Program-made: the position numbers and the translations under genes
IMG/VR virus record: IMGVR_UViG_3300010413_000009
Location: 17,629-81,628 of that record
DNA: 64,000 nt
Direction: 5' to 3' (one strand)
DNA from: a virus
Part shown: one piece after another, positions 7,045 through 53,344 of the stretch
How the letters are laid out: each line of letters begins with the position of its first letter
Numbering within the stretch: position 1 is the first letter of the stretch
Notes under the pieces: model-generated
Told to the model about the DNA's origin: nothing
The model's database searches: none
Seen by the model: the letters and a program-made list of their open reading frames with translations, nothing else

Positions 7045-7780
7045 GCTTCTCCCAGTTTGTCGATTTCACCGTCTCAAGCGGATTGAACACGTGCGACCAG
7101 TAATGTGTATCAGTCCTTCCGTGTTCAACATCCCAGAGGATGTGCCGAACGATCGCTGACGGAAAAACGATGTTCTCCGCCTCGCGGCGCTCGCGCACCT
7201 TTGAAATCCAGTGATTCTCAAGTTCCTTGTATCGCTTATCGGTTAATGCGTCGGATTTAGCCAACCCGTACCAACGGGCAACGTGGCGATCGACGGCAAC
7301 AACCTCGCATTCGCGCGGCCAGCACATCTCCAGGGCGAACGAGATAGTCTTCATTCCGCAGTGCGGAAGGGCACGCAGCCTATTACGCCATGCACCCCAC
7401 CGTACCCTGCCATTCTTTACCTTCCAACCAGCTTCACGCGGATGCAGGAAAGGACGCCCGTTACGCTCCCTCATCATGAACGCCTGGTGTATGCCCCAGC
7501 AAGCAGATACCTTGGCATTGTAAAGCCCGTGACCAACAGCGTGGATGACCTCACGTAGCTCTTCCTCCGTGTGCCAATCCTGGGTAGTCACAGCCTGATA
7601 GTACCGCACATTGGGTTTCCAGCCAGTCCGAACGGACAAAGCGGCGAATAACCATCGCAGGTAGCGCTCATGAAGCGTCCGCGGTGTGATGACGTCCCAA
7701 TACCCCAGGTACTCAAGAACTGTAGCAGGATCGATGTTGCGAATCTTGGCGGTGACCGCCTTAAAGTCAACTCCCATCAC
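7016..7780 (-). CDS. HhH-GPD superfamily DNA glycosylase-like protein (endonuclease III family-like).
   Basis: GMKTISFALEMCWPRECEVVAVDRHVARWYGL resembles the helix-hairpin-helix/GPD region (GxGxKTA...VDTHV) of EndoIII-type enzymes. Confidence 0.5.
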   Translation of the reverse strand: MMGVDFKAVTAKIRNIDPATVLEYLGYWDVITPRTLHERYLRWLFAALSVRTGWKPNVRYYQAVTTQDWHTEEELREVIHAVGHGLYNAKVSACWGIHQAFMMRERNGRPFLHPREAGWKVKNGRVRWGAWRNRLRALPHCGMKTISFALEMCWPRECEVVAVDRHVARWYGLAKSDALTDKRYKELENHWISKVRERREAENIVFPSAIVRHILWDVEHGRTDTHYWSHVFNPLETVKSTNWEKHANRMCAVA

Positions 7781-9873
7781 GGCACAAGTAGCGCGTCGAA
7801 CTCCTCTTCGGAGAGAACGGCGACGCCAAGCTCCTCAGCCTTCTGAAGCTTTGACCCGGCGTCAGCACCTGCTACAAGGTAATCCGTCTTACTGGAAACA
7901 CTGCTGGCTGCGCGTCCGCCCGCAGCTATGATGGCCGCCTTCACGCTTTCGCGCGAATAGCCATTGAGCTTGCCAGTCGCACAGACGGTCTTGCCGGCGA
8001 GTGGCTGTGGCGTCTCCGGCGACGGTGGCGCCCGCACGGGATCACGTTGACCCATGTTCAACCCGTGTTTGCGGAGGTCGTCCAACAGCTTGAGATTGCG
8101 CTTCCGATCGAACCAGGTCAGGATGCTGCACGCAGTCTCCTCACCTATCCCCTCCATCTCCATCAGCATGCGCACATCCGCTGCCTTATCCAAAACCTCG
8201 AAAATGTCACATGTCGCACCCATTCTCGAGATGATGTCCTTGCAGATGATCTCTGAATTGGTCCTGCCGCAATGCGGGATGTTGAGCGAGGCCAGGAGAC
8301 GCCATGAGGGCCGCTCCTTTGCGCGCTCAAGCGCTTCGAGCAGCTTCTTCGATTTCCCGGGCGTCATTCCCGGAATCGCGCCAGAATCGTCCACAGCGTC
8401 TTTGAGGGCCCACAGGGAGGCGAAGTCAGTGATAGCATCTGTATCCATCATGGCTTGCACAGCCTTTGGTCCGAGCCCGTCGATGTCCAGCCGGCTGCGG
8501 TCGGCAGCTGAGAGGATTACGGCTTCTAGCTGAGCTGGGCAACCTACGGAGTTTGTGCAACGTACGAGAGGACCGGCAATCAGAGTCTCAGCCTTGCACG
8601 CCGGACACTTCTTGGGCGGTTGGAATCGCTTTGCACCTTTAGGCCGCTTGTCTTTGTGGACACGCACCAGATGCGGAATGATTTTGCCAGCCTTCTCCAG
8701 CGTGACGGTATCGCCGACGCGCGGATCGAGCCTGCGCACTTCGTCGAAGTTGAACAGGGTGCTCTTCTGGACCGTAGTCTCCGCGATCTCGACAGGCTCA
8801 TAGTATGCAACCGGCGTCAGCGTGCCTTGTTTGCCCACCTGCACTTCGAGACGCTTGATCTTAGTCTCGGCTTCATAGCGCTCCCACTTGTATGCGAGCG
8901 CCCATGAAACATGTCTCGATGAAGTATTGCCGGCGGCCAGGCGTTGAGAGAGCTTGTCGAGTTTGACTACAATGCCATCAATCGGATAGCTGATCTCATG
9001 CATCGATTCAACCATCTGCGCGATGGCCTGCTGTGCTACCTCGTAATTCACGCAGAGACGGCGCTCGACGATCAACGGGATGCCGTATTGCCACAATGCG
9101 GTCATCGTCTCATGGAACGAATCGTTTACGTATCCCGCATCGCATCGTCCGATGCCGTGCGCGATGAAACGTAATCCGCGCTTCCAGCAATCTGTTGGAT
9201 CGCGTTGCCGCAGCGCGCCGGCAGCAGCGCTTCTGGCGTTTTTGAACGGTTCTTCGCCAGCAGCCGCCTGGTGCTCCACAAGCACGTTGAACATGATGTT
9301 CGAGATGTAGGCTTCGCCTCGCACCTCGATAATGCCCGGAGGTCCGGCATTCCGCGACCACGTCTCAGGAATCGGTGCCATCTCGTCGCATCGCAGGTGA
9401 AACGGAATGCCGCGGATGCAGAGCGCATTATGCGATATATCATCGCCAGTTGCACCATCGCCACGACTAACGGCATGTGTCAATGTACCGTTCTCGTATA
9501 TCAGATTGATAGCGCATCCATCAATCTTCCAATCGACTGTGTACGCGGGTGTTTGGCCGTTGCCGACCGCCTTCTGCATGCGCACATTGAATTTGTCAAG
9601 CTCCTTCAAATCGAAGCCATTATCAATCGAGAGCATCGGCGTCAGATGTTTCACTGCCCGCAGCTCGTCGATTGGTTTCCCGCCAACGCGCTGCGTTGGA
9701 CTATCGGGCGTGATCAGTTCCGGATATTCGGATTCCAGCTTTCGCAAAGCAGCGAAGAGCTTGTCGTACGCTGTGTCCGTTATCGCTGGTGTGCCATGCA
9801 CGTAATACAGCGTATCATGCCGCAAGATTTCAGCCCGCAATGCGGCTGCCGTCTTCTCAGGGTTCGTTGCCAT
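7777..9873 (-). CDS. ligA: NAD-dependent DNA ligase.
   Basis: KIDGCAINL adenylation motif (KxDG), EVRGE, Cys4 zinc finger CPACKAETLIAGPLVRCTNSVGCPAQ, HhH region and C-terminal BRCT-like domain; start overlaps the upstream stop. Confidence 0.9.
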   Translation of the reverse strand: MATNPEKTAAALRAEILRHDTLYYVHGTPAITDTAYDKLFAALRKLESEYPELITPDSPTQRVGGKPIDELRAVKHLTPMLSIDNGFDLKELDKFNVRMQKAVGNGQTPAYTVDWKIDGCAINLIYENGTLTHAVSRGDGATGDDISHNALCIRGIPFHLRCDEMAPIPETWSRNAGPPGIIEVRGEAYISNIMFNVLVEHQAAAGEEPFKNARSAAAGALRQRDPTDCWKRGLRFIAHGIGRCDAGYVNDSFHETMTALWQYGIPLIVERRLCVNYEVAQQAIAQMVESMHEISYPIDGIVVKLDKLSQRLAAGNTSSRHVSWALAYKWERYEAETKIKRLEVQVGKQGTLTPVAYYEPVEIAETTVQKSTLFNFDEVRRLDPRVGDTVTLEKAGKIIPHLVRVHKDKRPKGAKRFQPPKKCPACKAETLIAGPLVRCTNSVGCPAQLEAVILSAADRSRLDIDGLGPKAVQAMMDTDAITDFASLWALKDAVDDSGAIPGMTPGKSKKLLEALERAKERPSWRLLASLNIPHCGRTNSEIICKDIISRMGATCDIFEVLDKAADVRMLMEMEGIGEETACSILTWFDRKRNLKLLDDLRKHGLNMGQRDPVRAPPSPETPQPLAGKTVCATGKLNGYSRESVKAAIIAAGGRAASSVSSKTDYLVAGADAGSKLQKAEELGVAVLSEEEFDALLVP

Positions 9874-10198
9874 CGGTATCCTGTTCGAGTTTCTTTTTGT
9901 TCAGAACAACGAATGGTATTTTGGCTCCATACCAACCAGGATTCGCAGCTAGCCATTCGTCGAGATTCATACTGAGATCGAACGCCGTACCGACAAGTAC
10001 AGGCACAAACGCATCTCGCGTACCGTCGAAAATGACCGGTCCAATTTTAGCCAGTCCACCCAAATCATTGTGGTATATCCACTGTCCCTGTTGGGGCTGA
10101 TACCACTTCGGGAGATTGATCTGGCGCTCCACGACAGCCGTAGTGTCGTTGTGCAGCAACAATGTCATCTGCATGTAAACCGTATGCGAGTCGTACAT
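9857..10198 (-). CDS. Hypothetical protein.
   Basis: 113-aa ORF with a short overlap to ligA. Confidence 0.45.
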   Translation of the reverse strand: MYDSHTVYMQMTLLLHNDTTAVVERQINLPKWYQPQQGQWIYHNDLGGLAKIGPVIFDGTRDAFVPVLVGTAFDLSMNLDEWLAANPGWYGAKIPFVVLNKKKLEQDTDGNEP

Positions 10199-11895
10199 TA
10201 CGTTGTGCTCTGTACAGTGGGTTCCATTTGGTCGCAGTTGCGCAGCTCAGCTTCAGTCAGGCTATGCCCCAGGCGCCGCGCGATAGCCGGAGCACGTGTG
10301 GCGCTTGTGTAGATGAAGTGCGCGATCGGCGATCGGTACTGATCTGAGCATCTATCATGGTATAGCTTGTAGAAATCCTTTGGATGCGCGTGACGTCCGT
10401 GCGTCGGCACTGTATGGCACGTCTCATGCAGAATCAGATGAGCGTAGTGTCCGAAGGATTTCGGCGTAAGCCCGAATCGCCGTACATGGTCGCGATTGAT
10501 CACGATAAAATTCGCGGCATCGGTCCACGCAATCTGCGGCCCGTGGCCGAGCATGATCCGCATCTTACCGAGACGTGCGTCACGCCTGAACAGATCGTCA
10601 TAACAGACGCGCAGCACCCCGAGTACGATGGATTCGATGCGATTGAGAGAGTCATCTGTCACTATATGGCATTCTGATTGTAACGCCTTCACGAGCTGAT
10701 CCCAGGACGCATAGGTCAGCGCGTGCCTGTCACCTATTCCAAGCGTCCGGTTAGTCAGATTGACAATACTCTCGGGCTTTGCGTAATTCCAACGCTGAAG
10801 CATTTCGCGATTGAGCACACACGCAAGACGGTTTATCGTCAATTGCTCAGCTGTGCGGTGACTAGACCAATAGAACCGTCCTTCTGGCGCCATCGTAACA
10901 ACACCGTCAGCGATGTTGTGAATCTGCCGGACGGTCATGTTCACTGATGAATTCCACCGCTGGAAGAGCTTTGCACTCTTGAATGGCCGTGGTTCTAGCT
11001 GCCCGTCTTTTGCATTGTTGATCATCCGGCGCCGGTCCTCTTCAGTCAGACGGCGCGGAGCGCGACGATTGGTACGTCGCGTGGCGGTAGTGCGCGTGCG
11101 CGTCCCGGTCTGCGATGCATTCGCTTTACGCTGCAGCACGGGGACGATCTTGGCCCACACGGGGCAGTCGTCCATGATATCGTTGCGCGCAAAATTGATT
11201 CGCAGTGCCTTCTTCGTCACAACATCGCCACCGATCCCGTACTTATAACGGTAAAAGCGCGTGACGAGTATGCCCTGGTTGTACACGCGTAGATCCTGAT
11301 TGCTCCGATAACGGATATCCGCCTCGGGCAGTTCCTCATCCCAGGTAATACGCGAGCGATCGACGGCGAACGCTTTACCATCCAGTGTTGCGTTGATTTC
11401 CACGTAGCGCGCATTGCTCTTGATTTCGTCTTGCATGCGTGCCAGATCGGTGTGGCTCAACCGCTTGTACAACTCGACAGTGATGTCACACCCGTCGTGT
11501 TGCTCAAGGCCATCAGCCAGATGGTAATCAAGTCCGTGCCGCTCGATGTCAACCGTCATCTCGAACGTGCCGGAGCGCCAAGTGTTGCCGCCGAATGCGA
11601 AGAGCTGTCCGCGTCCCATACGAAACGTGCCAAAGGTCTTCTGTTCATTCTCGTCGTGCGGTTTGCCGAAAACCTCGAAGAAGTTCTCGATATCCGCACG
11701 CGAGCGGAAGCCCTTGCCGTTGTCGTGTATGCGCAGTTGATCGCGCGTCATTGTTATAGCGCATTCCGACGCGCCGGCGTCGATGGCATTCATGATGCCC
11801 TCGATTGTTGCCTTCCACAAGCTGCCTGCCTGTCGCTTGATGACATCTACTAACAGCTTGTGATCCATTTTGAACGTACGACGTTCCCTTGCCAT
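10198..11895 (-). CDS. GHKL (Bergerat-fold) ATPase domain protein with a C-terminal HExxH motif region.
   Basis: N-terminus has N-box-like EGIMNAIDAGASE and G1-box IHDNGKGF. The middle is a basic low-complexity linker. The C-terminus has LILHETCHTVPTHGRHAHP (HExxH). Confidence 0.55.
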   Translation of the reverse strand: MARERRTFKMDHKLLVDVIKRQAGSLWKATIEGIMNAIDAGASECAITMTRDQLRIHDNGKGFRSRADIENFFEVFGKPHDENEQKTFGTFRMGRGQLFAFGGNTWRSGTFEMTVDIERHGLDYHLADGLEQHDGCDITVELYKRLSHTDLARMQDEIKSNARYVEINATLDGKAFAVDRSRITWDEELPEADIRYRSNQDLRVYNQGILVTRFYRYKYGIGGDVVTKKALRINFARNDIMDDCPVWAKIVPVLQRKANASQTGTRTRTTATRRTNRRAPRRLTEEDRRRMINNAKDGQLEPRPFKSAKLFQRWNSSVNMTVRQIHNIADGVVTMAPEGRFYWSSHRTAEQLTINRLACVLNREMLQRWNYAKPESIVNLTNRTLGIGDRHALTYASWDQLVKALQSECHIVTDDSLNRIESIVLGVLRVCYDDLFRRDARLGKMRIMLGHGPQIAWTDAANFIVINRDHVRRFGLTPKSFGHYAHLILHETCHTVPTHGRHAHPKDFYKLYHDRCSDQYRSPIAHFIYTSATRAPAIARRLGHSLTEAELRNCDQMEPTVQSTT

Positions 11896-12336
11896 TTACC
11901 TTCCTCGCGATAGCGAGATCTTACGAAAAGCGCGGTCGGATTGTTTGGTTTCTTGTACCTCGGGCGGTTCTTCCGACGGCTTGTGAAATCGTGGATGCCT
12001 GTATATGACGGTACCGCAAGCCGCCTTCTCTATTTTGACGATACTGTCCATCAGGATTGCGCGACCGCTCCTACTCCTTGAAGTGGGTACAGTGATTGGT
12101 GTGTCCATGTCTCTGCCGCCCCAGAAGATATAGCCTTCGTCGTACTCTTCCCAGGATCTACCAGTGAGCGTATCGCCGTAATAGATCCGGTAACGATCGC
12201 GCATGAATGCGCGAGCGTCCTCAGTAGAAGCAATGAGTTCGTCTGCGAAGAAGCGCACAACGCCAAGTGGCGTGTTCGGCCCATGTATGCCGAGAAAGTA
12301 AAGGTCTACCTGGCGCGCAGTGCGCTGCGGTGTCAT
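11896..12336 (-). CDS. Hypothetical protein; start at an internal Met to avoid overlap with RNase H.
   Basis: Coding-like ORF downstream of RNase H. Confidence 0.45.
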   Translation of the reverse strand: MTPQRTARQVDLYFLGIHGPNTPLGVVRFFADELIASTEDARAFMRDRYRIYYGDTLTGRSWEEYDEGYIFWGGRDMDTPITVPTSRSRSGRAILMDSIVKIEKAACGTVIYRHPRFHKPSEEPPEVQETKQSDRAFRKISLSRGR

Positions 12337-12337
12337 C

Positions 12338-12973
12338 TCAGATTGAGAAGTCGTAGATGCTTGCGTCTTCGGGGATGCCCGGGTACCGCGTGCAGAGGAG
12401 TTCTCGCGCCCTTTCGAACGTGCCTTCGACATCTAACCTCGCTTGTCTTGAAACTTCATCCACCAACACGTTCAGATTGATTCGTGCACGCTCAACGAAG
12501 TGGAAGGTTAAGACGAAGCCGCGATTGCGAAATTCATCAAACGCCTTCCAAAGCTCCTGGTGTGCGCGACGTGATTCTGGCCGATTGCCCGCCATTGCTA
12601 TGATCTGGCTATCGGTCACAATGTGGACCTGCATTTGTCGATTTGCTGCCTGTAATTCACGGCGCCTAGCCCGTCCGGGGCCGTCACGACCCGTGTACCA
12701 GCTCAGAGCGTGGAGATACGGGAAGAGTTCGCCAAGTGTCACCGTGCCGGTGTTCATGGCCCCGTAAAACAGCTTGCGTGCGCCGCTGTACTTATCTATC
12801 AGTACAGCAGCCCAGCCCGCACCCATCTTCCACCCTGTACCCGATCCGTCGCCGATGATAATGGCATCCCAGCTGTTAATCTTGAGATGCTTGATCAGGG
12901 ATTCTAAGGTGGAAAGGCCGAGTGAGAGGCCCGGATTCTTGCTCGTCGCTTTTCTGTGTTTGTCCTGCGTCAT
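12338..12973 (-). CDS. rnhA: Ribonuclease H.
   Basis: IIIGDGSGTG...GAGWAAVLI (first Asp), HIVTDSQ, and HFVERARINLNVLVDE match the RNase H1 catalytic DEDD arrangement. Confidence 0.75.
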   Translation of the reverse strand: MTQDKHRKATSKNPGLSLGLSTLESLIKHLKINSWDAIIIGDGSGTGWKMGAGWAAVLIDKYSGARKLFYGAMNTGTVTLGELFPYLHALSWYTGRDGPGRARRRELQAANRQMQVHIVTDSQIIAMAGNRPESRRAHQELWKAFDEFRNRGFVLTFHFVERARINLNVLVDEVSRQARLDVEGTFERARELLCTRYPGIPEDASIYDFSI

Positions 12974-14150: not shown

Positions 14151-14543
14151 TCTGAGTTGATGCCCTGTCCGGTGGCGGGAAGCCGTCTCGTATCCCCTCG
14201 GGCCTTGGTAGCGGCGCATCGAGCGGGTAGGAGTGGATTTGGCAGTCGCCGGGGACAACGGTCGCGATCGGCCGCCTGTATGTAGGCCGAATACCCGCGC
14301 GCTCCAAGAACAACCTCGCATTCATCGTTATTGCCATTAGTGGCTCCTCCTACAGGCCAGAGCGTAATAGGCCTTCGCAGTTCAGCAGGGCCTTGCTATC
14401 ATGGATAGCAGATCACTAACGCGATTACACACGCAATCAGCGCTACGATCCAAAATAGCTTGGTACGCTGCCAAGCGTCGCTGCAGAAATTTCCGAAGTC
14501 GTTGAACTTCTGCAGTTCAAAGTTGGTTTCGTCAGGATCGTTC

Positions 14544-16433
14544 ATGCACACAGTCTATCAAGAACCGGCTGCGTTGGAAACGACGCTAGCGCAGACCCTC
14601 GCCATCATTACCGGAGACGGCGACACACAGTTATCTGCAGGCGACCGAATCAGCGCTTACCATAAGTTGCTGCGCACAGGTCAGATTGACACACTGACCC
14701 ACGCGCTACCACTTATGCTCAACCTCAAAGGGAAGCCGTATTCACTTATCAATCACTTCCCGTTCGAGGAGATTTTCAGATTCCGCATGCCACCTGCGCT
14801 GATCTATAAGACCGGCCGGCAGGTGAGCAAGTCGACGTCGTTGGCGGCGCACGGTATCGTGATCTCGATTTCAGTCAGCAATCTCACAACGCTGTACGTG
14901 ATGCCGTTGTTCGAACAGGTGCGTCGTTTCAGCACCATGTTCGTGCAGCCGTTCATCGAGCAATCCCCAGTCAAACGTCTGTGGTCAGGCACCGACACCG
15001 TTAACTCCGTTCTGCACCGCAGCTTCCGGAATCACTCGAAGATGTTGTTCAGCTTCGCGTTCCTGAATGCCGATCGTATCCGCGGTATCTCCGCGGATAA
15101 GGTTGCTATCGACGAGGTTCAGGACATGAACCATGAACACATCCCAATTATCCGTGAAACGATGTCGGCGTCGGATTGGGCGATACGGCAATTCACCGGC
15201 ACACCGAAGACGCTCGATAATACGCTGGAGACGCTTTGGCAGGAGTCGTCACAGGCTGAGTGGTTCATTCCATGTACACATTGTACGACTGGAGGTTATC
15301 CAACCTGGAACATTCCGGCGATGGAGTACCACCTAGAGCGCATGATCGGCGGCTATCGACGGGACATCAGCGAAGAGTACCCAGCAACGATCTGCTGGAA
15401 ATGTGGCGGGCTAATCAATCCACGATTCGGACGCTGGGTGCATCGTAATCCCGCGTTGATCTGGTTACAGGCCGGCTACCATGTGCCTCAGGTTATAATG
15501 CCGCTGCATTACGCGAAACGTGACAAGTGGGCCGAACTGCTGGCCAAGATGGCGGGCAAAGGCAACACCCCGCTAAACGTATTCTACAACGAAGTGCTCG
15601 GTGAATCGTACGATACGGCAGCCAAGCTGGTCACCCTGACAGAGTTGAACGGCGTGTCGAATCTGGGCGAAAACAGCGTCGCGCGGGCGCGTGCGCGTCG
15701 CGGAATGTACCGGATGACCGTGTTGGCAGTGGACTGGGGCGGCGGCGGTGAGAAACAACTCAGCTTTACCACGGTCGCGCTGCTCGGATTGTGCGCTGAC
15801 GGCGTCATCGAATGCATTTATGGCAAACGATTGCTGACGCCACATGACCACCTGCGCGAGGCGCGAGAGATTAAGCATCTGTGGGATACCTTCCGCCCGA
15901 CGATGCTCGTCCACGACTATACCGGCGCTGGTGCATTGCGTGAGACATTCTTGATCCAGGCCGGTATCGCGGCGCGAACAGTCATGCCGTGCCAGTACGT
16001 CCGCTCCGCCAGTCAGCAACCGTGTTATCACGTTGCGCCGACGCTGCAGCACCCGCGGTCGCACTACCGCGTCGACAAGTCGCGTAGCCTGCTGCTGACA
16101 TGCGCGATGATCAAATGCAAGCGTCTCAAGTTCTTTGATGCCGACTACATAAGTCAGGAGGATCCCGGCTTGATCCGTGACTTCCTAGCGCTCATCGAAG
16201 ACAAGATTACCACGATGGCTGCAGGAGAGATCTACCGCATTACGCGGCAAGAGGGAGTCACTGATGACTTTGCGCAGGCGGTCAACCTAGGCTGTGTTGC
16301 TATTTGGTATCGCACTCGGCAGTGGCCGCGGCTGGATGCAATTGCAGAGGCTGCGTATCAGGTGACGGATGCGCAGTTGCGGGCAGCGGCACCGCAGCAA
16401 GATTCCGATTGGGATGACGAGCTTTTCGCCTAG
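14544..16433 (+). CDS. terL: Terminase large subunit (T4 gp17-like ATPase plus RNase-H-fold nuclease).
   Basis: Deviant Walker A KTGRQVSKST, Walker B VAIDEVQD, motif III FTGTPKT, nuclease-domain acidic residues (LAVDWGGGG, DDFAQAV). Start taken at MHTVYQE rather than the ORF-track start. Confidence 0.75.
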   Translation: MHTVYQEPAALETTLAQTLAIITGDGDTQLSAGDRISAYHKLLRTGQIDTLTHALPLMLNLKGKPYSLINHFPFEEIFRFRMPPALIYKTGRQVSKSTSLAAHGIVISISVSNLTTLYVMPLFEQVRRFSTMFVQPFIEQSPVKRLWSGTDTVNSVLHRSFRNHSKMLFSFAFLNADRIRGISADKVAIDEVQDMNHEHIPIIRETMSASDWAIRQFTGTPKTLDNTLETLWQESSQAEWFIPCTHCTTGGYPTWNIPAMEYHLERMIGGYRRDISEEYPATICWKCGGLINPRFGRWVHRNPALIWLQAGYHVPQVIMPLHYAKRDKWAELLAKMAGKGNTPLNVFYNEVLGESYDTAAKLVTLTELNGVSNLGENSVARARARRGMYRMTVLAVDWGGGGEKQLSFTTVALLGLCADGVIECIYGKRLLTPHDHLREAREIKHLWDTFRPTMLVHDYTGAGALRETFLIQAGIAARTVMPCQYVRSASQQPCYHVAPTLQHPRSHYRVDKSRSLLLTCAMIKCKRLKFFDADYISQEDPGLIRDFLALIEDKITTMAAGEIYRITRQEGVTDDFAQAVNLGCVAIWYRTRQWPRLDAIAEAAYQVTDAQLRAAAPQQDSDWDDELFA

Positions 16434-17456: not shown

Positions 17457-17655
17457 CTAATGCCGCAGTACCCTTCTCCGTGTGACCCGGAGGCTATACG
17501 CCGGGCGCGGCTGGCGGCGAGTACGACTTGTATCGCACTGTCACATGGCTTGACCTGTTTTTGGTAGCTACCATTACCTGGCAGGCCAGGTAAGATCCGA
17601 GGGCGAGAATTGCGCTCGCACTTGCTGCGTACGAAGCAGCTGTCCTACTGTTAGA

Positions 17656-46999: not shown

Positions 47000-47959
47000 T
47001 CAGTCGGCGGCCGTTGATTGCCTGGTGTTGCGATCGAGGGCCTCACGCATCATCGCAGTATTCATGCTCGATTGGTTGATAGCCTCATAAGGCATGATGA
47101 ACACCACGTTGTTGGTCCCCTTTGCCATCTCCGAGGAAACCGTCTCCATCACTTCGAGCTGCCGCCACGTTAGATACTGCGGCGTCAGCGATTCTGCGAG
47201 GATCTTGTTTTCGTCGGCCTGCGCTTGGGCCTTGATCATCCTGACTTTGGCCTCTTCCGTCTCTATCCCGGCCCGTCGTTGCGCTTCGGCCATAGCGGCC
47301 TCTGCCAATGCTGCCTGCTTCTGGTCTTCGAGCTGCGCGTTCTTGATCGCATTGCGCTGGTCGATGACCACTTGGGGATAGTCAATGTTGGAGATCAAAA
47401 CCGCGGCAACATGCAACGGGTAATTCAACGCTTCAATGCGTGCCCGGACATCGGTGGCCAGGTCTTCTTCGATTTGTTTCCTGTTGGGGCGGATGTCGTC
47501 GGTCGCATACACGCTGATCACATTGCGCGCGCTGGATCGTACGATATCCTGAACTGTCATCTGGTAGAACTTATCCAGCGAGAGCTCGAAGCCCTCGAGC
47601 TCGCTATCTTCCGCTGTCTTGATGGCCGGGACTTTCTGCTTGATGAACCCAATGGAGCTTTCATCGACTTCGAAGGCCATCACGGCCTTGACGTCGACGG
47701 TCATGTTGATGTCATCCTTGCAGAGGATATTCATCCCAGGCTCAGCGAACGAATTCAGCTTCTGATCGACGAAGTAAACACGATCGCGACCGTATGCCTT
47801 GTAGACGCCGTCCGTTACTGTCGTGGCCTCGCCTGAAGGATGCAAGATGATCACCATCTTGCCGGGAGGTACGACTGTTCCGCAGCCGACCGTGAGAACG
47901 ATCGCTGCAATGAGAAGTGTGCTAATCAGCCTTGGGAGGCGCGGGTTCTGGGGATTCAC
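47000..47959 (-). CDS. SPFH/band-7 (prohibitin/HflC-like) lipoprotein.
   Basis: Signal peptide with lipobox-like LTVGC, a band-7 core, and a C-terminal Ala/Glu-rich coiled coil (AALAEAAMAEAQRRAGIETEEAKVRMIKAQAQADE). Confidence 0.7.
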   Translation of the reverse strand: MNPQNPRLPRLISTLLIAAIVLTVGCGTVVPPGKMVIILHPSGEATTVTDGVYKAYGRDRVYFVDQKLNSFAEPGMNILCKDDINMTVDVKAVMAFEVDESSIGFIKQKVPAIKTAEDSELEGFELSLDKFYQMTVQDIVRSSARNVISVYATDDIRPNRKQIEEDLATDVRARIEALNYPLHVAAVLISNIDYPQVVIDQRNAIKNAQLEDQKQAALAEAAMAEAQRRAGIETEEAKVRMIKAQAQADENKILAESLTPQYLTWRQLEVMETVSSEMAKGTNNVVFIMPYEAINQSSMNTAMMREALDRNTRQSTAAD

Positions 47960-50318: not shown

Positions 50319-50730
50319 CACCTTCCGCGGATTCACTCCCCGCGACTGGCGGCTCCCCGCTGGGAACTTCTTCCCGTTCTTGAACACCCACTCCAGGTGT
50401 TCCGCCATCGTCAGTATCTCCCGTTTCTTCGATGTCCTGGATGTAAGAACCAGTCCATCGCTCCGGCTTCTCCGGAGTAGGCGGACCCCAATCGAGCTCG
50501 TCGTCGATCTCGGCGCCGGTCCTGCGATCGAATCGGTACATTAGGCCGTCCACGGCCAACACGCCAAGCACTTCGTCAACTGGCGCACAGACAACTTCGT
50601 CATCCTTGACCTCGACGATTTCCATATCCATGAATTCGTCACCGGCAACAAGCCGTTTTACCCGCTTTCCGACTGCCGGATTTGCGGGGCCTTGAGTCAA
50701 AATGACATTGCCTTCAGCTGGCTCTGTCAC
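50263..50730 (-). CDS. Hypothetical protein with an acidic, disordered C-terminus.
   Basis: 155-aa ORF. Confidence 0.45.
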   Translation of the reverse strand: MTEPAEGNVILTQGPANPAVGKRVKRLVAGDEFMDMEIVEVKDDEVVCAPVDEVLGVLAVDGLMYRFDRRTGAEIDDELDWGPPTPEKPERWTGSYIQDIEETGDTDDGGTPGVGVQEREEVPSGEPPVAGSESAEGDGVDELQRTDEVSNDTVE

Positions 50731-51914
50731 GCATCCTCCTTGGATGGTTTTTCACGTATGCGGATGCCACGAAAGCGCCTTACGGCATTTGCAGCCAGCT
50801 GCGAATCCGCAGCGGCTTCGCGGACCGCGGAAAGCCCCGCGGCCAGCTGCGCACCGATCTCGGCATCACCGTTAAGTTGCTGCGGCGTTGCGGCATAAAG
50901 TCGTTCACGACATTGCCGTATCGCGTTTAGCAACTCTGGCCCAGCCAGGAACTCGAAGCCTTCGACCATTTCAAATGCTTCCCTTACCTGGCTTATCGTG
51001 CCATTGCGGATTATACGTTGGGGCGATTGCAATGCGCCCAACAAATTGTCGGCAGCTGCAGTTAGGATTTCCCGCGGCTCTCGCGCCATGTTCTCCAGCA
51101 TCTCGCGCGTGAATTGATGCATCTGCGCTTGTGCTTCAGCGATCAGCTCGCCGGCCTCGCTATCGGTAACCTGCTCAGTATTGCCTCTCGCCCGCTCGCG
51201 TAGTTGTTGCAATGTCTGCTGCGCGCGTTGTAATGCCTGCCGCCCCGGCGGCGATGCATGGCCACCACCTATCCCGTCGGTAGTCATCAGGTCGGCTTGT
51301 TGCCACAACCCCATGCCGGCCGACAGGCCGTTATCGAGAATCTCGAGTTCGACGTCGGTGATGGCGCTGCGTCCGCCGGCCGGTACGATGGCCCAGACGA
51401 TACCGAACTTCCCGGCAACGGTCTCAGCCTCTGGCAACTTGCCTTGCACTTTCTTGAATAACTCGGCGCCGAGCCGGCTCGCTAGTTCCTCAAGGATGCT
51501 TTCATATGCCGTAACGAACTCGTCACGGTTTTGTTCCATCTCGGTGCGCAGCGCGCGCAGGCCGCTGAAAACCTCCTGCGCGCGTGACATAGGCAGCACA
51601 GCAATTCCGCGCGTAGCGAATTGGATAGATGCATGCGCCAGTAACGATCTGGCGCGCCCTTCGAGATTGACTAACTTCTTCCGCCATTCCATGGGCATCA
51701 GTTGCCACTGTGGCTGGCTGCGAAACTCCGCCTCAATCTCCTTCTTCTTCTCTTTGCTGCTCTTACCGTCTTGGCCGACTGTCACTTCCACGATCGCGTC
51801 CGCGATCTGATATGTCAGTTTCGGCCAGGAGATATGCAACATCACCAGCAGCACGTGCTTGGTGATGGCATTGAGCAGCGGCTCGCCGTCAAGAACTTGT
51901 TGATTCGGGGGCAC
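50727..51914 (-). CDS. Hypothetical protein.
   Basis: 395-aa coding-like ORF; ATGA overlap downstream. Confidence 0.55.
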   Translation of the reverse strand: MPPNQQVLDGEPLLNAITKHVLLVMLHISWPKLTYQIADAIVEVTVGQDGKSSKEKKKEIEAEFRSQPQWQLMPMEWRKKLVNLEGRARSLLAHASIQFATRGIAVLPMSRAQEVFSGLRALRTEMEQNRDEFVTAYESILEELASRLGAELFKKVQGKLPEAETVAGKFGIVWAIVPAGGRSAITDVELEILDNGLSAGMGLWQQADLMTTDGIGGGHASPPGRQALQRAQQTLQQLRERARGNTEQVTDSEAGELIAEAQAQMHQFTREMLENMAREPREILTAAADNLLGALQSPQRIIRNGTISQVREAFEMVEGFEFLAGPELLNAIRQCRERLYAATPQQLNGDAEIGAQLAAGLSAVREAAADSQLAANAVRRFRGIRIREKPSKEDA

Positions 51915-52897: not shown

Positions 52898-53344
52898 TCA
52901 GACGTCCCAACCGCCGCCGCCACCTTCATCTTCAGCCTCGTATCCGGTGCCGCCGATGGAGATGGTGAGCTTGATAGACCCGTCGCTGAGCTTCAACTCT
53001 TCGCACTCATGGCCTTCAGCTTCCGCCTTGGCTTTCGCGGCCTCCACTGCATAGCCCTGCTTGACTTTATCAAGCTCTGCCTCGCTGCCCCACCGACCGC
53101 CGTAGTTGTCGAAAATGCACTCGCCGGTATTGGTGTCGACCGTGACTGGATTATTCCAGCCCTTGAGCTTGAATTGCAGCCCGCCCTTATCCGCGCCGCG
53201 CGCCCGTTGCACGCGCCCGATGAACTGTGCGCCCGGAACGCGGGCACACGCCTTCTTTAGCGTTGCTTCATCTTTGATGGCAGATTTTCGCCTTGTGATG
53301 TGACTCACGCTAGTTGTTTTCTGGATCTCCGCCCGATTGGGCAC
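52898..53344 (-). CDS. DUF1257-like protein.
   Basis: N-terminus SHITRRKSAIKDEATLKKA resembles the DUF1257 start (SHFxTIKTxIKDxEALxKAL); Gly-rich acidic C-terminus. Confidence 0.4.
   Translation of the reverse strand: MPNRAEIQKTTSVSHITRRKSAIKDEATLKKACARVPGAQFIGRVQRARGADKGGLQFKLKGWNNPVTVDTNTGECIFDNYGGRWGSEAELDKVKQGYAVEAAKAKAEAEGHECEELKLSDGSIKLTISIGGTGYEAEDEGGGGGWDV

Follow-up and report, generated by a model that had tools for sequence, protein, structure and literature searches.

ATPases of the GHKL superfamily that carry a transducer domain, among them MutL, MORC, type II topoisomerases and Hsp90, dimerise on ATP binding and close in a clamp-like manner. In eukaryotes, the repair of DNA-protein crosslinks by proteolysis is well characterised (Wss1, SPRTN, p97); we know of no dedicated DNA-protein-crosslink protease counterpart established in bacteria, archaea or their viruses. 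Here we describe a gene whose product combines a GHKL ATPase with an HExxH domain. It lies in a 64,000-nucleotide (nt) stretch of viral DNA (positions 17,629 to 81,628 of IMG/VR record IMGVR_UViG_3300010413_000009), hereafter called the window. Our analysis gives good support to a three-part mobile-element protein: a GHKL ATPase with its transducer, a flexible basic tether, and a C-terminal module whose last part is a small Zn-metallopeptidase domain of the Wss1/WLM/SprT type. Both domains are of known kinds; we regard their fusion as a new architecture from known parts.

Modules of a GHKL plus an S5 domain are ATP-operated dimerising clamps with a basic finger, a residue that the S5 domain of MORC, MutL and Hsp90 normally supplies (PMC2292703); that paper on MORC and paraMORC proteins mentions no protease fusion. 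Wss1 and SPRTN are described as DNA-dependent proteases of DNA-protein crosslinks that are assisted by Cdc48/p97 (PMC4559962, PMC7534798, PMC10308373). Phage proteins of the rIIA family have an N-terminal GHKL domain and a variable C-terminus, and the jumbo-phage survey that reports this mentions GHKL-containing rIIA and stand-alone SprT-like peptidases separately (PMC7824862). ArdC has a metalloprotease domain and must be expressed in the recipient to overcome hsdRMS (PMC7213743). In the literature searched we found no description of a fusion between GHKL and a SprT/WLM/metallopeptidase domain, and no curated Pfam, NCBIfam, PHROG or PADLOC model covers the fusion beyond its generic GHKL region.

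Domain organisation of the fusion protein

We assign the N-terminal half to a GHKL domain followed by the shared second, 'transducer' domain, because Pfam, profile matches in the PDB and a confident AlphaFold2 model all point there. Pfam HATPase_c_3 matches amino acids (aa) 25-97 above threshold (E = 2.7e-6; 27.9 bits versus a gathering score of 25), and a profile built from 44 relatives (32-56% identity) finds, in the PDB, the N-terminal parts of PMS2, MutL and MLH1 (E = 0.003). The model of the full protein, computed with the family alignment as input, has a mean predicted local distance difference test score (pLDDT) of 88.4 and a predicted template modelling score (pTM) of 0.70. The initial annotation, made from the letters alone, had described a 565-aa protein with N-box and G1-box motifs; the open reading frame (ORF) and every quoted motif were located and their coordinates checked, and the profile searches place the N-terminus inside, not outside, the GHKL superfamily.

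Motifs I-III are intact (E32/N36/D39, D58/G60/G62 and G94/G96). All of these residues are invariant in the alignment of 44 sequences, and the same set is kept in 90-99% of 215 full-length representatives. Bergerat motifs I-III and a second alpha/beta domain with an invariant R237 liken the fusion to the modules of MutL, MORC and type II topoisomerases. It differs from them in motif IV, which is Gly-Cys (G135-C136) where Gly-Thr is usual, a replacement that is invariant in the 44-sequence alignment and conserved in 98.6% of the 215 representatives. R237 lies in the NFARN motif, invariant in the second domain, and is a candidate for the phosphate-sensing basic finger. With general base, Mg ligand and adenine-binding residues present, the half is apparently a catalytically competent GHKL-plus-transducer unit, and the intact motifs suggest that the fusion protein binds and hydrolyses ATP and undergoes ATP-driven dimerisation.

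Its overall arrangement recalls MutL, with an ATPase first, a flexible linker next and a metal-binding domain at the C-terminus. NCBIfam and PADLOC returned generic, sub-threshold GHKL matches only (MutL, sacsin, BbrUII/type II restriction enzyme, TmtA), and for that reason we rejected membership of MutL and of any known defence system; TIGR00585 scored 16.8 bits against a cut-off of 180, and the PRK00095 models 11-23 bits against 391-756. Profile and fold searches of the C-terminal half found no MutL C-terminal dimerisation/endonuclease domain. MORC and paraMORC proteins likewise have GHKL plus S5; the MORC motif GhXhhpXXRhl (PMC2292703), searched as a regular expression with the residue classes as we read them, was found in 0 of 44 sequences. 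A phmmer search of the fusion protein against the PDB gave noise only, and PHROGs gave two weak, unannotated matches, both N-terminal, with no rIIA PHROG among them.

Residues 264-281 are the sole stretch of the model with pLDDT below 50. The initial annotation had noted a basic linker after the ATPase, and the window protein does have one, of 22 residues and charge +8. The linker is basic in 93% of the 44 family members, but its median length there is 8 residues; judging from this alignment, the long basic form is a feature of this phage clade. The middle domain that follows has no recognisable relative, profile and fold searches being uninformative, and is always found together with the zincin domain.

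The C-terminal part, modelled separately as residues 283-565, reached a pLDDT of 91.5. Residues 441-545 are predicted to fold into a three-stranded sheet followed by the HExxH-bearing helix (aa 478-492). Top structural matches of this domain are all peptidases (Wss1, selecase, abylysin, SPRTN), with Wss1 the best solved one. A zinc-metallopeptidase-like region had been suggested earlier from the motif, with a non-conserved loop as the possible artefact; the predicted structure gives a small zincin fold, in which the motif sits in a helix after the sheet and is almost invariant.

The family signature reads WTD ... HExCH-x7-HxH-xxEFY-xxx-H. Its portion HExCH-x7-HxH-xxEFY is kept in ~92-94% of the 215 full-length relatives, and HExxH in 203 of them. 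In 24 diverse C-terminal sequences H490, E491, H494, H502 and H504 do not vary; in the 44 relatives these five, F508 and H513 are either invariant or conserved to at least 90%, and a Cys stands beside the second HExxH His in 76% of members. From residue frequencies we estimate that ~2% of proteins this long would contain HExxH by chance. Because the motif is conserved together with the downstream His and Phe residues across relatives, we do not regard it as a chance occurrence here. Twelve of the 215 lack it (P0018, P0021, P0072, P0117, P0160, P0171, P0173 and five others); those listed have HQxxH, HVxxH, HSxxH or HCxxH or have lost the motif, and the twelve may be protease-dead variants.

Among the C-terminal halves of 24 relatives, Pfam WLM matched 7 (best E = 7e-4) and SprT-like 5 (best E = 6e-3). 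Aligned by hhalign with E. coli SprT and with 12 enterobacterial SprT sequences, the zincin profile brought HExxH and the downstream His-x-x-x-aromatic into register at E ~0.1; the SprT profile is shallow, because the SprT homologues retrieved were all at least 75% identical. Against the PDB, the profile of the C-terminal half found nothing relevant, and that of the zincin domain found proabylysin alone (E = 1). At the level of the modelled fold, the domain is a Wss1/WLM/SprT-like small zincin.

Likeness to Wss1 and SPRTN extends to a His ligand and an aromatic residue downstream of HExxH (H-x-x-x-F/W) and to a small fold of three-stranded sheet plus active-site helix, and the conserved Cys near the second His recalls the cysteine switch reported for Wss1 (PMC4559962). 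Sequence similarity to these proteases is marginal, however. In the fusion the downstream His pair follows at a 7-residue spacing and includes an additional conserved His (HxH), accessory domains of the ubiquitin/SUMO, SHP/VIM or Zn-ribbon kind are absent, and the ATPase partner is a fused GHKL domain, whereas that of Wss1 and SPRTN is the separate AAA+ protein Cdc48/p97.

Carriers and gene neighbourhoods

A word-indexed search retrieved 419 relatives of ~530-690 aa, most with more than 90% query coverage. They are named 'hypothetical protein' or nothing at all, save one 'Histidine kinase-, DNA gyrase B-, and HSP90-like ATPase'. An exhaustive hidden Markov model search with the C-terminal half returned 1,220 clusters at 50% identity, 1,027 of them at E <= 1e-10. 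Full-length matches among the 150 listed have the C-terminal module at about residues 270-560 of 540-690-aa proteins, and the shorter proteins among the 150 are most likely fragments. By these alignments the fusion is near-obligate: the module almost always stands behind ~270 N-terminal residues, which hold a GHKL domain in the relatives inspected.

The family is carried by mobile elements and is not phage-specific. The phage gene implied by the initial annotation is therefore too narrow a description, as relatives are also found on plasmids, chromosomes and archaeal replicons, with the motifs kept in bacterial, archaeal and plasmid versions. The window's own phage is a contig of ~101 kb, with a GpA-type terminase 2.5 kb from the fusion gene; many carriers are jumbo-phage contigs of 200-480 kb, one with a tubulin gene nearby. 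Species-representative genomes yielded 53 loci. Among them are loci in isolates of Mesorhizobium, Variovorax, Sphingomonas, Herbaspirillum, Piscinibacter and Rhodovibrio, and in many haloarchaea whose genomes hold multiple copies, as seen in Natrinema hispanicum, Haloterrigena sp. H1 and Natribaculum breve plasmids. In PLSDB the fusion is present on 204 of 72,556 plasmids (Acinetobacter 89, Pseudomonas 50, Xanthomonas 22), 91 of them conjugative and 42 mobilisable, including clinical Acinetobacter and Pseudomonas plasmids. The plasmid copies are annotated as 'ATP-binding protein' and nothing more.

The only matches in the phage database INPHARED were CAKLQH020000019 and CAKLQF020000023 ('Acinetobacter phage MD-2021a', locus L093). 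Their gene context (TetR regulators, an M48 peptidase and a 2115-nt ATP-binding gene) is shared with the A. baumannii conjugative plasmid pWM98-2, from which we conclude that these 69-kb records look plasmid-derived, not phage-derived. We considered whether the M48 peptidase beside the Acinetobacter homologue represents a split fusion and rejected this; it has a signal peptide and a lipobox and is probably unrelated.

Gene order is conserved within the close phage clade (at least 43% identity) and synteny is confined to it: terminase(-) ... RNase H-like gene ... 150-180-aa ORF, fusion, small ORF(s), NAD ligase. An NAD-dependent ligase is near the fusion in 12 close phage loci. Elsewhere, an ATP-dependent ligase adjoins it in two proteobacterial metagenome-assembled genomes (L049 by Pfam, L046 by homology), and NurA and HerA are encoded directly upstream in Mesorhizobium. 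Pseudomonas MOBP plasmids show the order repA-parA-parB-dcm-[fusion]-ssb-...-umuDC. On Xanthomonas pLMG930.1, topB ends 10 nt before the fusion gene; on a Photobacterium plasmid, the genes ahead of it are those for ssb, thermonuclease and topoisomerase III, with topoisomerase III two genes upstream. Other plasmids have DinG, ParB-N, PAPS-reductase/DndB, a FEN-type exonuclease, primase, ArdR and a MobH relaxase as neighbours.

In haloarchaea, an ArdC-like gene (ArdcN plus M78 peptidase), often together with a superfamily 1 (SF1) helicase gene (AAA_11/AAA_12), lies upstream of the fusion. The cassette in loci L067-L092 consists of the ArdC-like gene (311 aa), in some cases the SF1 helicase (752 aa), and the fusion, accompanied by PIN/antitoxin pairs and a TrmB-type helix-turn-helix gene; it looks like a mobile or plasmid backbone module. 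ArdC resembles the fusion in more than being a conserved neighbour there, as both are mobile-element proteins in which a small HExxH protease is joined to a targeting domain that depends on nucleic acid or ATP. They differ in zincin subtype (the haloarchaeal ArdC-like neighbour matches Peptidase_M78) and in the partner domain, which is a GHKL ATPase in the fusion and a single-stranded-DNA-binding domain in ArdC; the fusion protein has no Pfam match to ArdcN, a domain found in the separate neighbouring gene.

We took a Pfam census of 145 neighbours at 18 non-redundant loci. It recorded C5 methylase, AAA, RuvB, beta-clamp, ATP-dependent ligase and PhoH once or twice each, and DUF6927 twice. Candidate DUF6915 loci are L040, L047, L057 and one more, the three named ones coming from BLAST cluster c15. 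The overall theme of the neighbourhoods is DNA handling and establishment on mobile elements, with no fixed operon.

Proposed function and alternatives

We tentatively propose, at a little short of an even chance, that the fusion is a DNA-associated protease: an ATP-gated clamp that would bring a Wss1/SprT-like protease to proteins lodged on the DNA of the element. On binding ATP, the GHKL clamp would close on that DNA or on a protein stalled there, and the closed clamp would position the tethered protease so that a DNA-bound or covalently trapped protein could be degraded. Candidate substrates would be topoisomerases that have stalled or become trapped, relaxases, nucleoid proteins of the host and host nucleases that translocate. 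With these removed, phage or plasmid DNA entering the cell could be replicated, repaired, ligated and established. In that case the fusion would unite in one polypeptide what eukaryotes divide between a DNA-protein-crosslink protease (Wss1/SPRTN) and an ATPase (Cdc48/p97). DNA-dependent proteolysis by the zincin domain is suggested here by its fold and by the gene neighbourhoods. Adjacency to topoisomerase III, ligase, HerA/NurA and ArdC fits such DNA clearing, and also fits a narrower, ArdC-like anti-restriction protease. The initial annotation had suggested a counter-defence or DNA-processing role, with which the neighbourhoods appear compatible.

Several observations weigh against a DNA-associated protease. 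In structural searches the ATPase half has a protein chaperone, TRAP1/Hsp90, as its first-ranked neighbour, and its best viral fold matches are rIIA proteins, for which we know of no action on DNA; Hsp90 and rIIA are no more distant from this half than DNA enzymes are. No DNA-binding domain was recognised in the fusion protein, the middle domain lacks an informative match, and a basic charge is not a consistent property of its domains among family members. Pfam finds no match in the C-terminus of the window protein, the catalytic Glu is missing in ~5% of relatives, and the profile-to-profile links to bona fide SprT are not significant, so that the likeness to Wss1 rests on predicted structure and on weak matches in relatives. 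As to neighbours, the census found heterogeneous genes and no universal one; the most frequent family was DUF6915 (4 members, best E = 4e-46), with DNA-related families once or twice each, and several jumbo-phage loci have no informative neighbours.

Among the alternatives, a dedicated anti-defence or establishment protease would destroy specific host immunity proteins, such as restriction complexes, much as has been proposed for the ArdC metalloprotease; the GHKL domain would then respond to substrate or ATP as a switch and would not be a DNA clamp. The company of orphan dcm, ssb, parB, ArdR and PAPS-reductase/DndB genes on plasmids would suit this, as would the ArdC-like genes next door in haloarchaea, given the metalloprotease domain of ArdC and its required expression in the recipient. 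DNA-bound restriction complexes are known targets of proteolysis in restriction alleviation (PMC11109961), and the closest viral fold matches are counter-exclusion proteins, namely rIIA. High conservation across bacterial phages, plasmids and archaea nevertheless argues against one host-specific target, and a paper on anti-defence genes in leading regions (PMC11541004) has no mention of GHKL, ATPase or metalloprotease; we hold this explanation to be unlikely. The same fold matches could instead indicate an Hsp90/rIIA-like chaperone-protease that acts off DNA, in quality control, takeover of host proteins or rIIA-like membrane-associated protection. Foldseek matches in BFVD are mostly to rIIA and 'HSP90 family' phage proteins, with E down to 3e-11, and T4 rIIA is also phage-encoded, with an N-terminal GHKL and a second domain. 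However, these matches are limited to the N-terminal third (template modelling score normalised to the query ~0.33), and rIIA has no HExxH module. We rejected an rIIA assignment, the hhalign comparison of the family profile with T4 rIIA giving E = 0.3 and no rIIA PHROG being matched; the NCBIfam HtpG match was weak as well (E = 0.085, in 1 of 5 relatives tested). T4 rIIB has about 312 aa, and no rIIB-like neighbour is seen at the window locus, where the two flanking ORFs (113 and 178 aa) carry no annotation as rII genes. Most neighbours with an annotation encode DNA enzymes, and we consider a chaperone-protease distinctly unlikely.

The HExxH domain might also not be a protease at all, and serve as a metal-dependent nuclease (a MutL-like ATPase with a nicking enzyme) or as a structural or regulatory Zn site. 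The MutL-like layout agrees with this, as do the 12 relatives without HExxH, in most of which, as listed, the Glu is replaced, the motif being lost in others. Since the top structural matches are all peptidases, H-E-x-x-H ... H-x-x-x-F fits the WLM/SprT pattern and no MutL C-terminal domain was matched, this appears very unlikely. We give still less credence to a defence, exclusion or toxin module, in which an NTPase sensor and a protease effector would act against competing elements or the host cell. Several copies sit next to PIN/antitoxin pairs on haloarchaeal replicons, Acinetobacter and Xanthomonas plasmids have zeta toxin genes close by, and type II restriction enzyme and TmtA models gave weak GHKL-level matches. 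Against this stand the PADLOC results, with no model matching beyond the generic GHKL region (E of 2e-4 or weaker over ~50-80 residues), and the place of the fusion inside the replication module of the phage clade, in conserved synteny; such a module is highly improbable.

Returning to the DNA-associated protease, the most far-reaching form of this proposal would be that the family is the first prokaryotic or viral ATP-gated 'protein-off-DNA' protease, a fused equivalent of Wss1/SPRTN-Cdc48. Phages, conjugative plasmids and archaeal replicons would employ it on incoming or replicating DNA to strip covalently trapped or tightly bound proteins, such as topoisomerases, relaxases and translocating restriction or defence nucleases, and it would serve both as a repair factor and as a broad anti-defence factor; we think this rather unlikely. 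A large unstudied family of ~1,200 clusters (50% identity) is in any case a concrete and testable candidate for such activity in prokaryotes and mobile elements. It bears on plasmid establishment and phage anti-defence, as 204 sequenced plasmids carry it under the label 'ATP-binding protein' only. Should the proposed mechanism prove incorrect, the family would still merit its own curated model, since current libraries recognise only the first ~100 residues.

The locus and the rest of the window

The features of the fusion gene and its flanks are collected in the table below. The start codon is backed by a homologue alignment that runs from residue 1. The gene is packed into a minus-strand operon, tight against both flanking ORFs: the TAA of the upstream 178-aa ORF abuts its ATG, and its own TAA overlaps the ATG of the 113-aa ORF (TAATG). 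On this arrangement, both small ORFs appear to be translationally coupled to the fusion gene. The ORF with the phrog_17487 match is found directly 5' of the fusion in 11 related loci and is kept in the close phage clade only.

Table. Positions of the fusion gene, its domains and motifs, and the flanking genes in the window
Feature	Position (nt)	Strand	Basis
GHKL ATPase-zincin fusion coding sequence, complete, 565 aa, ATG start	10198..11895	(-)	ORF listing, homologues, AlphaFold2 model
GHKL (Bergerat-fold) ATP-binding domain, aa 1-145	11461..11895	(-)	
Second alpha/beta domain, aa 146-262, transducer / S5-like position	11110..11460	(-)	
Disordered arginine-rich linker, aa 263-284, net charge +8	11044..11109	(-)	pLDDT
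Middle alpha/beta domain, aa 285-440	10576..11043	(-)	
Predicted small zincin (Wss1/WLM/SprT-like) metallopeptidase-type domain, aa 441-545	10261..10575	(-)	
N-box EGIMNAID, aa 32-39	11779-11802	(-)	
G1 DNGKG, aa 58-62	11710-11724	(-)	
G2 GTFRMGRGQ, aa 89-97			
NFARN motif, second domain, aa 234-238	11182-11196	(-)	
R-rich stretch TGTRTRTTATRRTNRRAPRRLT, aa 263-284			
W457-T458-D459, inside zincin domain			
HETCH, aa 490-494	10414-10428	(-)	
Zincin motif H490-E491-x-C-H494-x7-H502-x-H504-xxx-F508-Y-xxx-H513	10357-10428	(-)	
Upstream 178-aa ORF, phrog_17487	11896..12432	(-)	PHROG E = 1.3e-9
Downstream 113-aa ORF	9857..10198	(-)	ORF listing
ligA, NAD-dependent DNA ligase, beyond 113-aa ORF	7777-9873		Pfam
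'RNase H' candidate	12338-12973	(-)	

The gene had been placed between ligA and RNase H. Both are nearby, but neither is an immediate neighbour, as one ORF intervenes on each side. The 'RNase H' candidate has no Pfam match. With a 7-sequence family profile, its 36 best PDB matches were all RNase HI (best E = 0.018), the alignment spanning the DGS...E region, and it may be called weakly RNase HI-like by these matches. The RNase H-like gene is conserved in 16 related phage loci.

Other genes in the window drew our attention. An 880-aa ORF at 30902-33544 (-) matches the Major Vault Protein (MVP) shoulder domain (PF11978, E = 3e-23, aa 562-670) and the vault repeat (PF17795, E = 1.5e-7) and has no PHROG match; an MVP-like protein is unusual in a phage window. 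A 319-aa SPFH/Band 7 protein (PF01145, E = 8e-13) is encoded at 47000-47959 (-), its fold being related to the MVP shoulder of that ORF. The 571-aa ORF at 60312-62027 (-) aligns along its entire length with phrog_850, 'RNA-binding protein' (E = 1.6e-78). Positions 53310-55016 encode an AAA-type ATPase (phrog_8638, E = 3e-93), with a DUF3150 protein nearby at 50727-51914. The GpA-type large terminase at 14460-16433 (+) has 657 aa when read from a TTG; since the public gene call has 629 aa, its true start is probably an internal codon.

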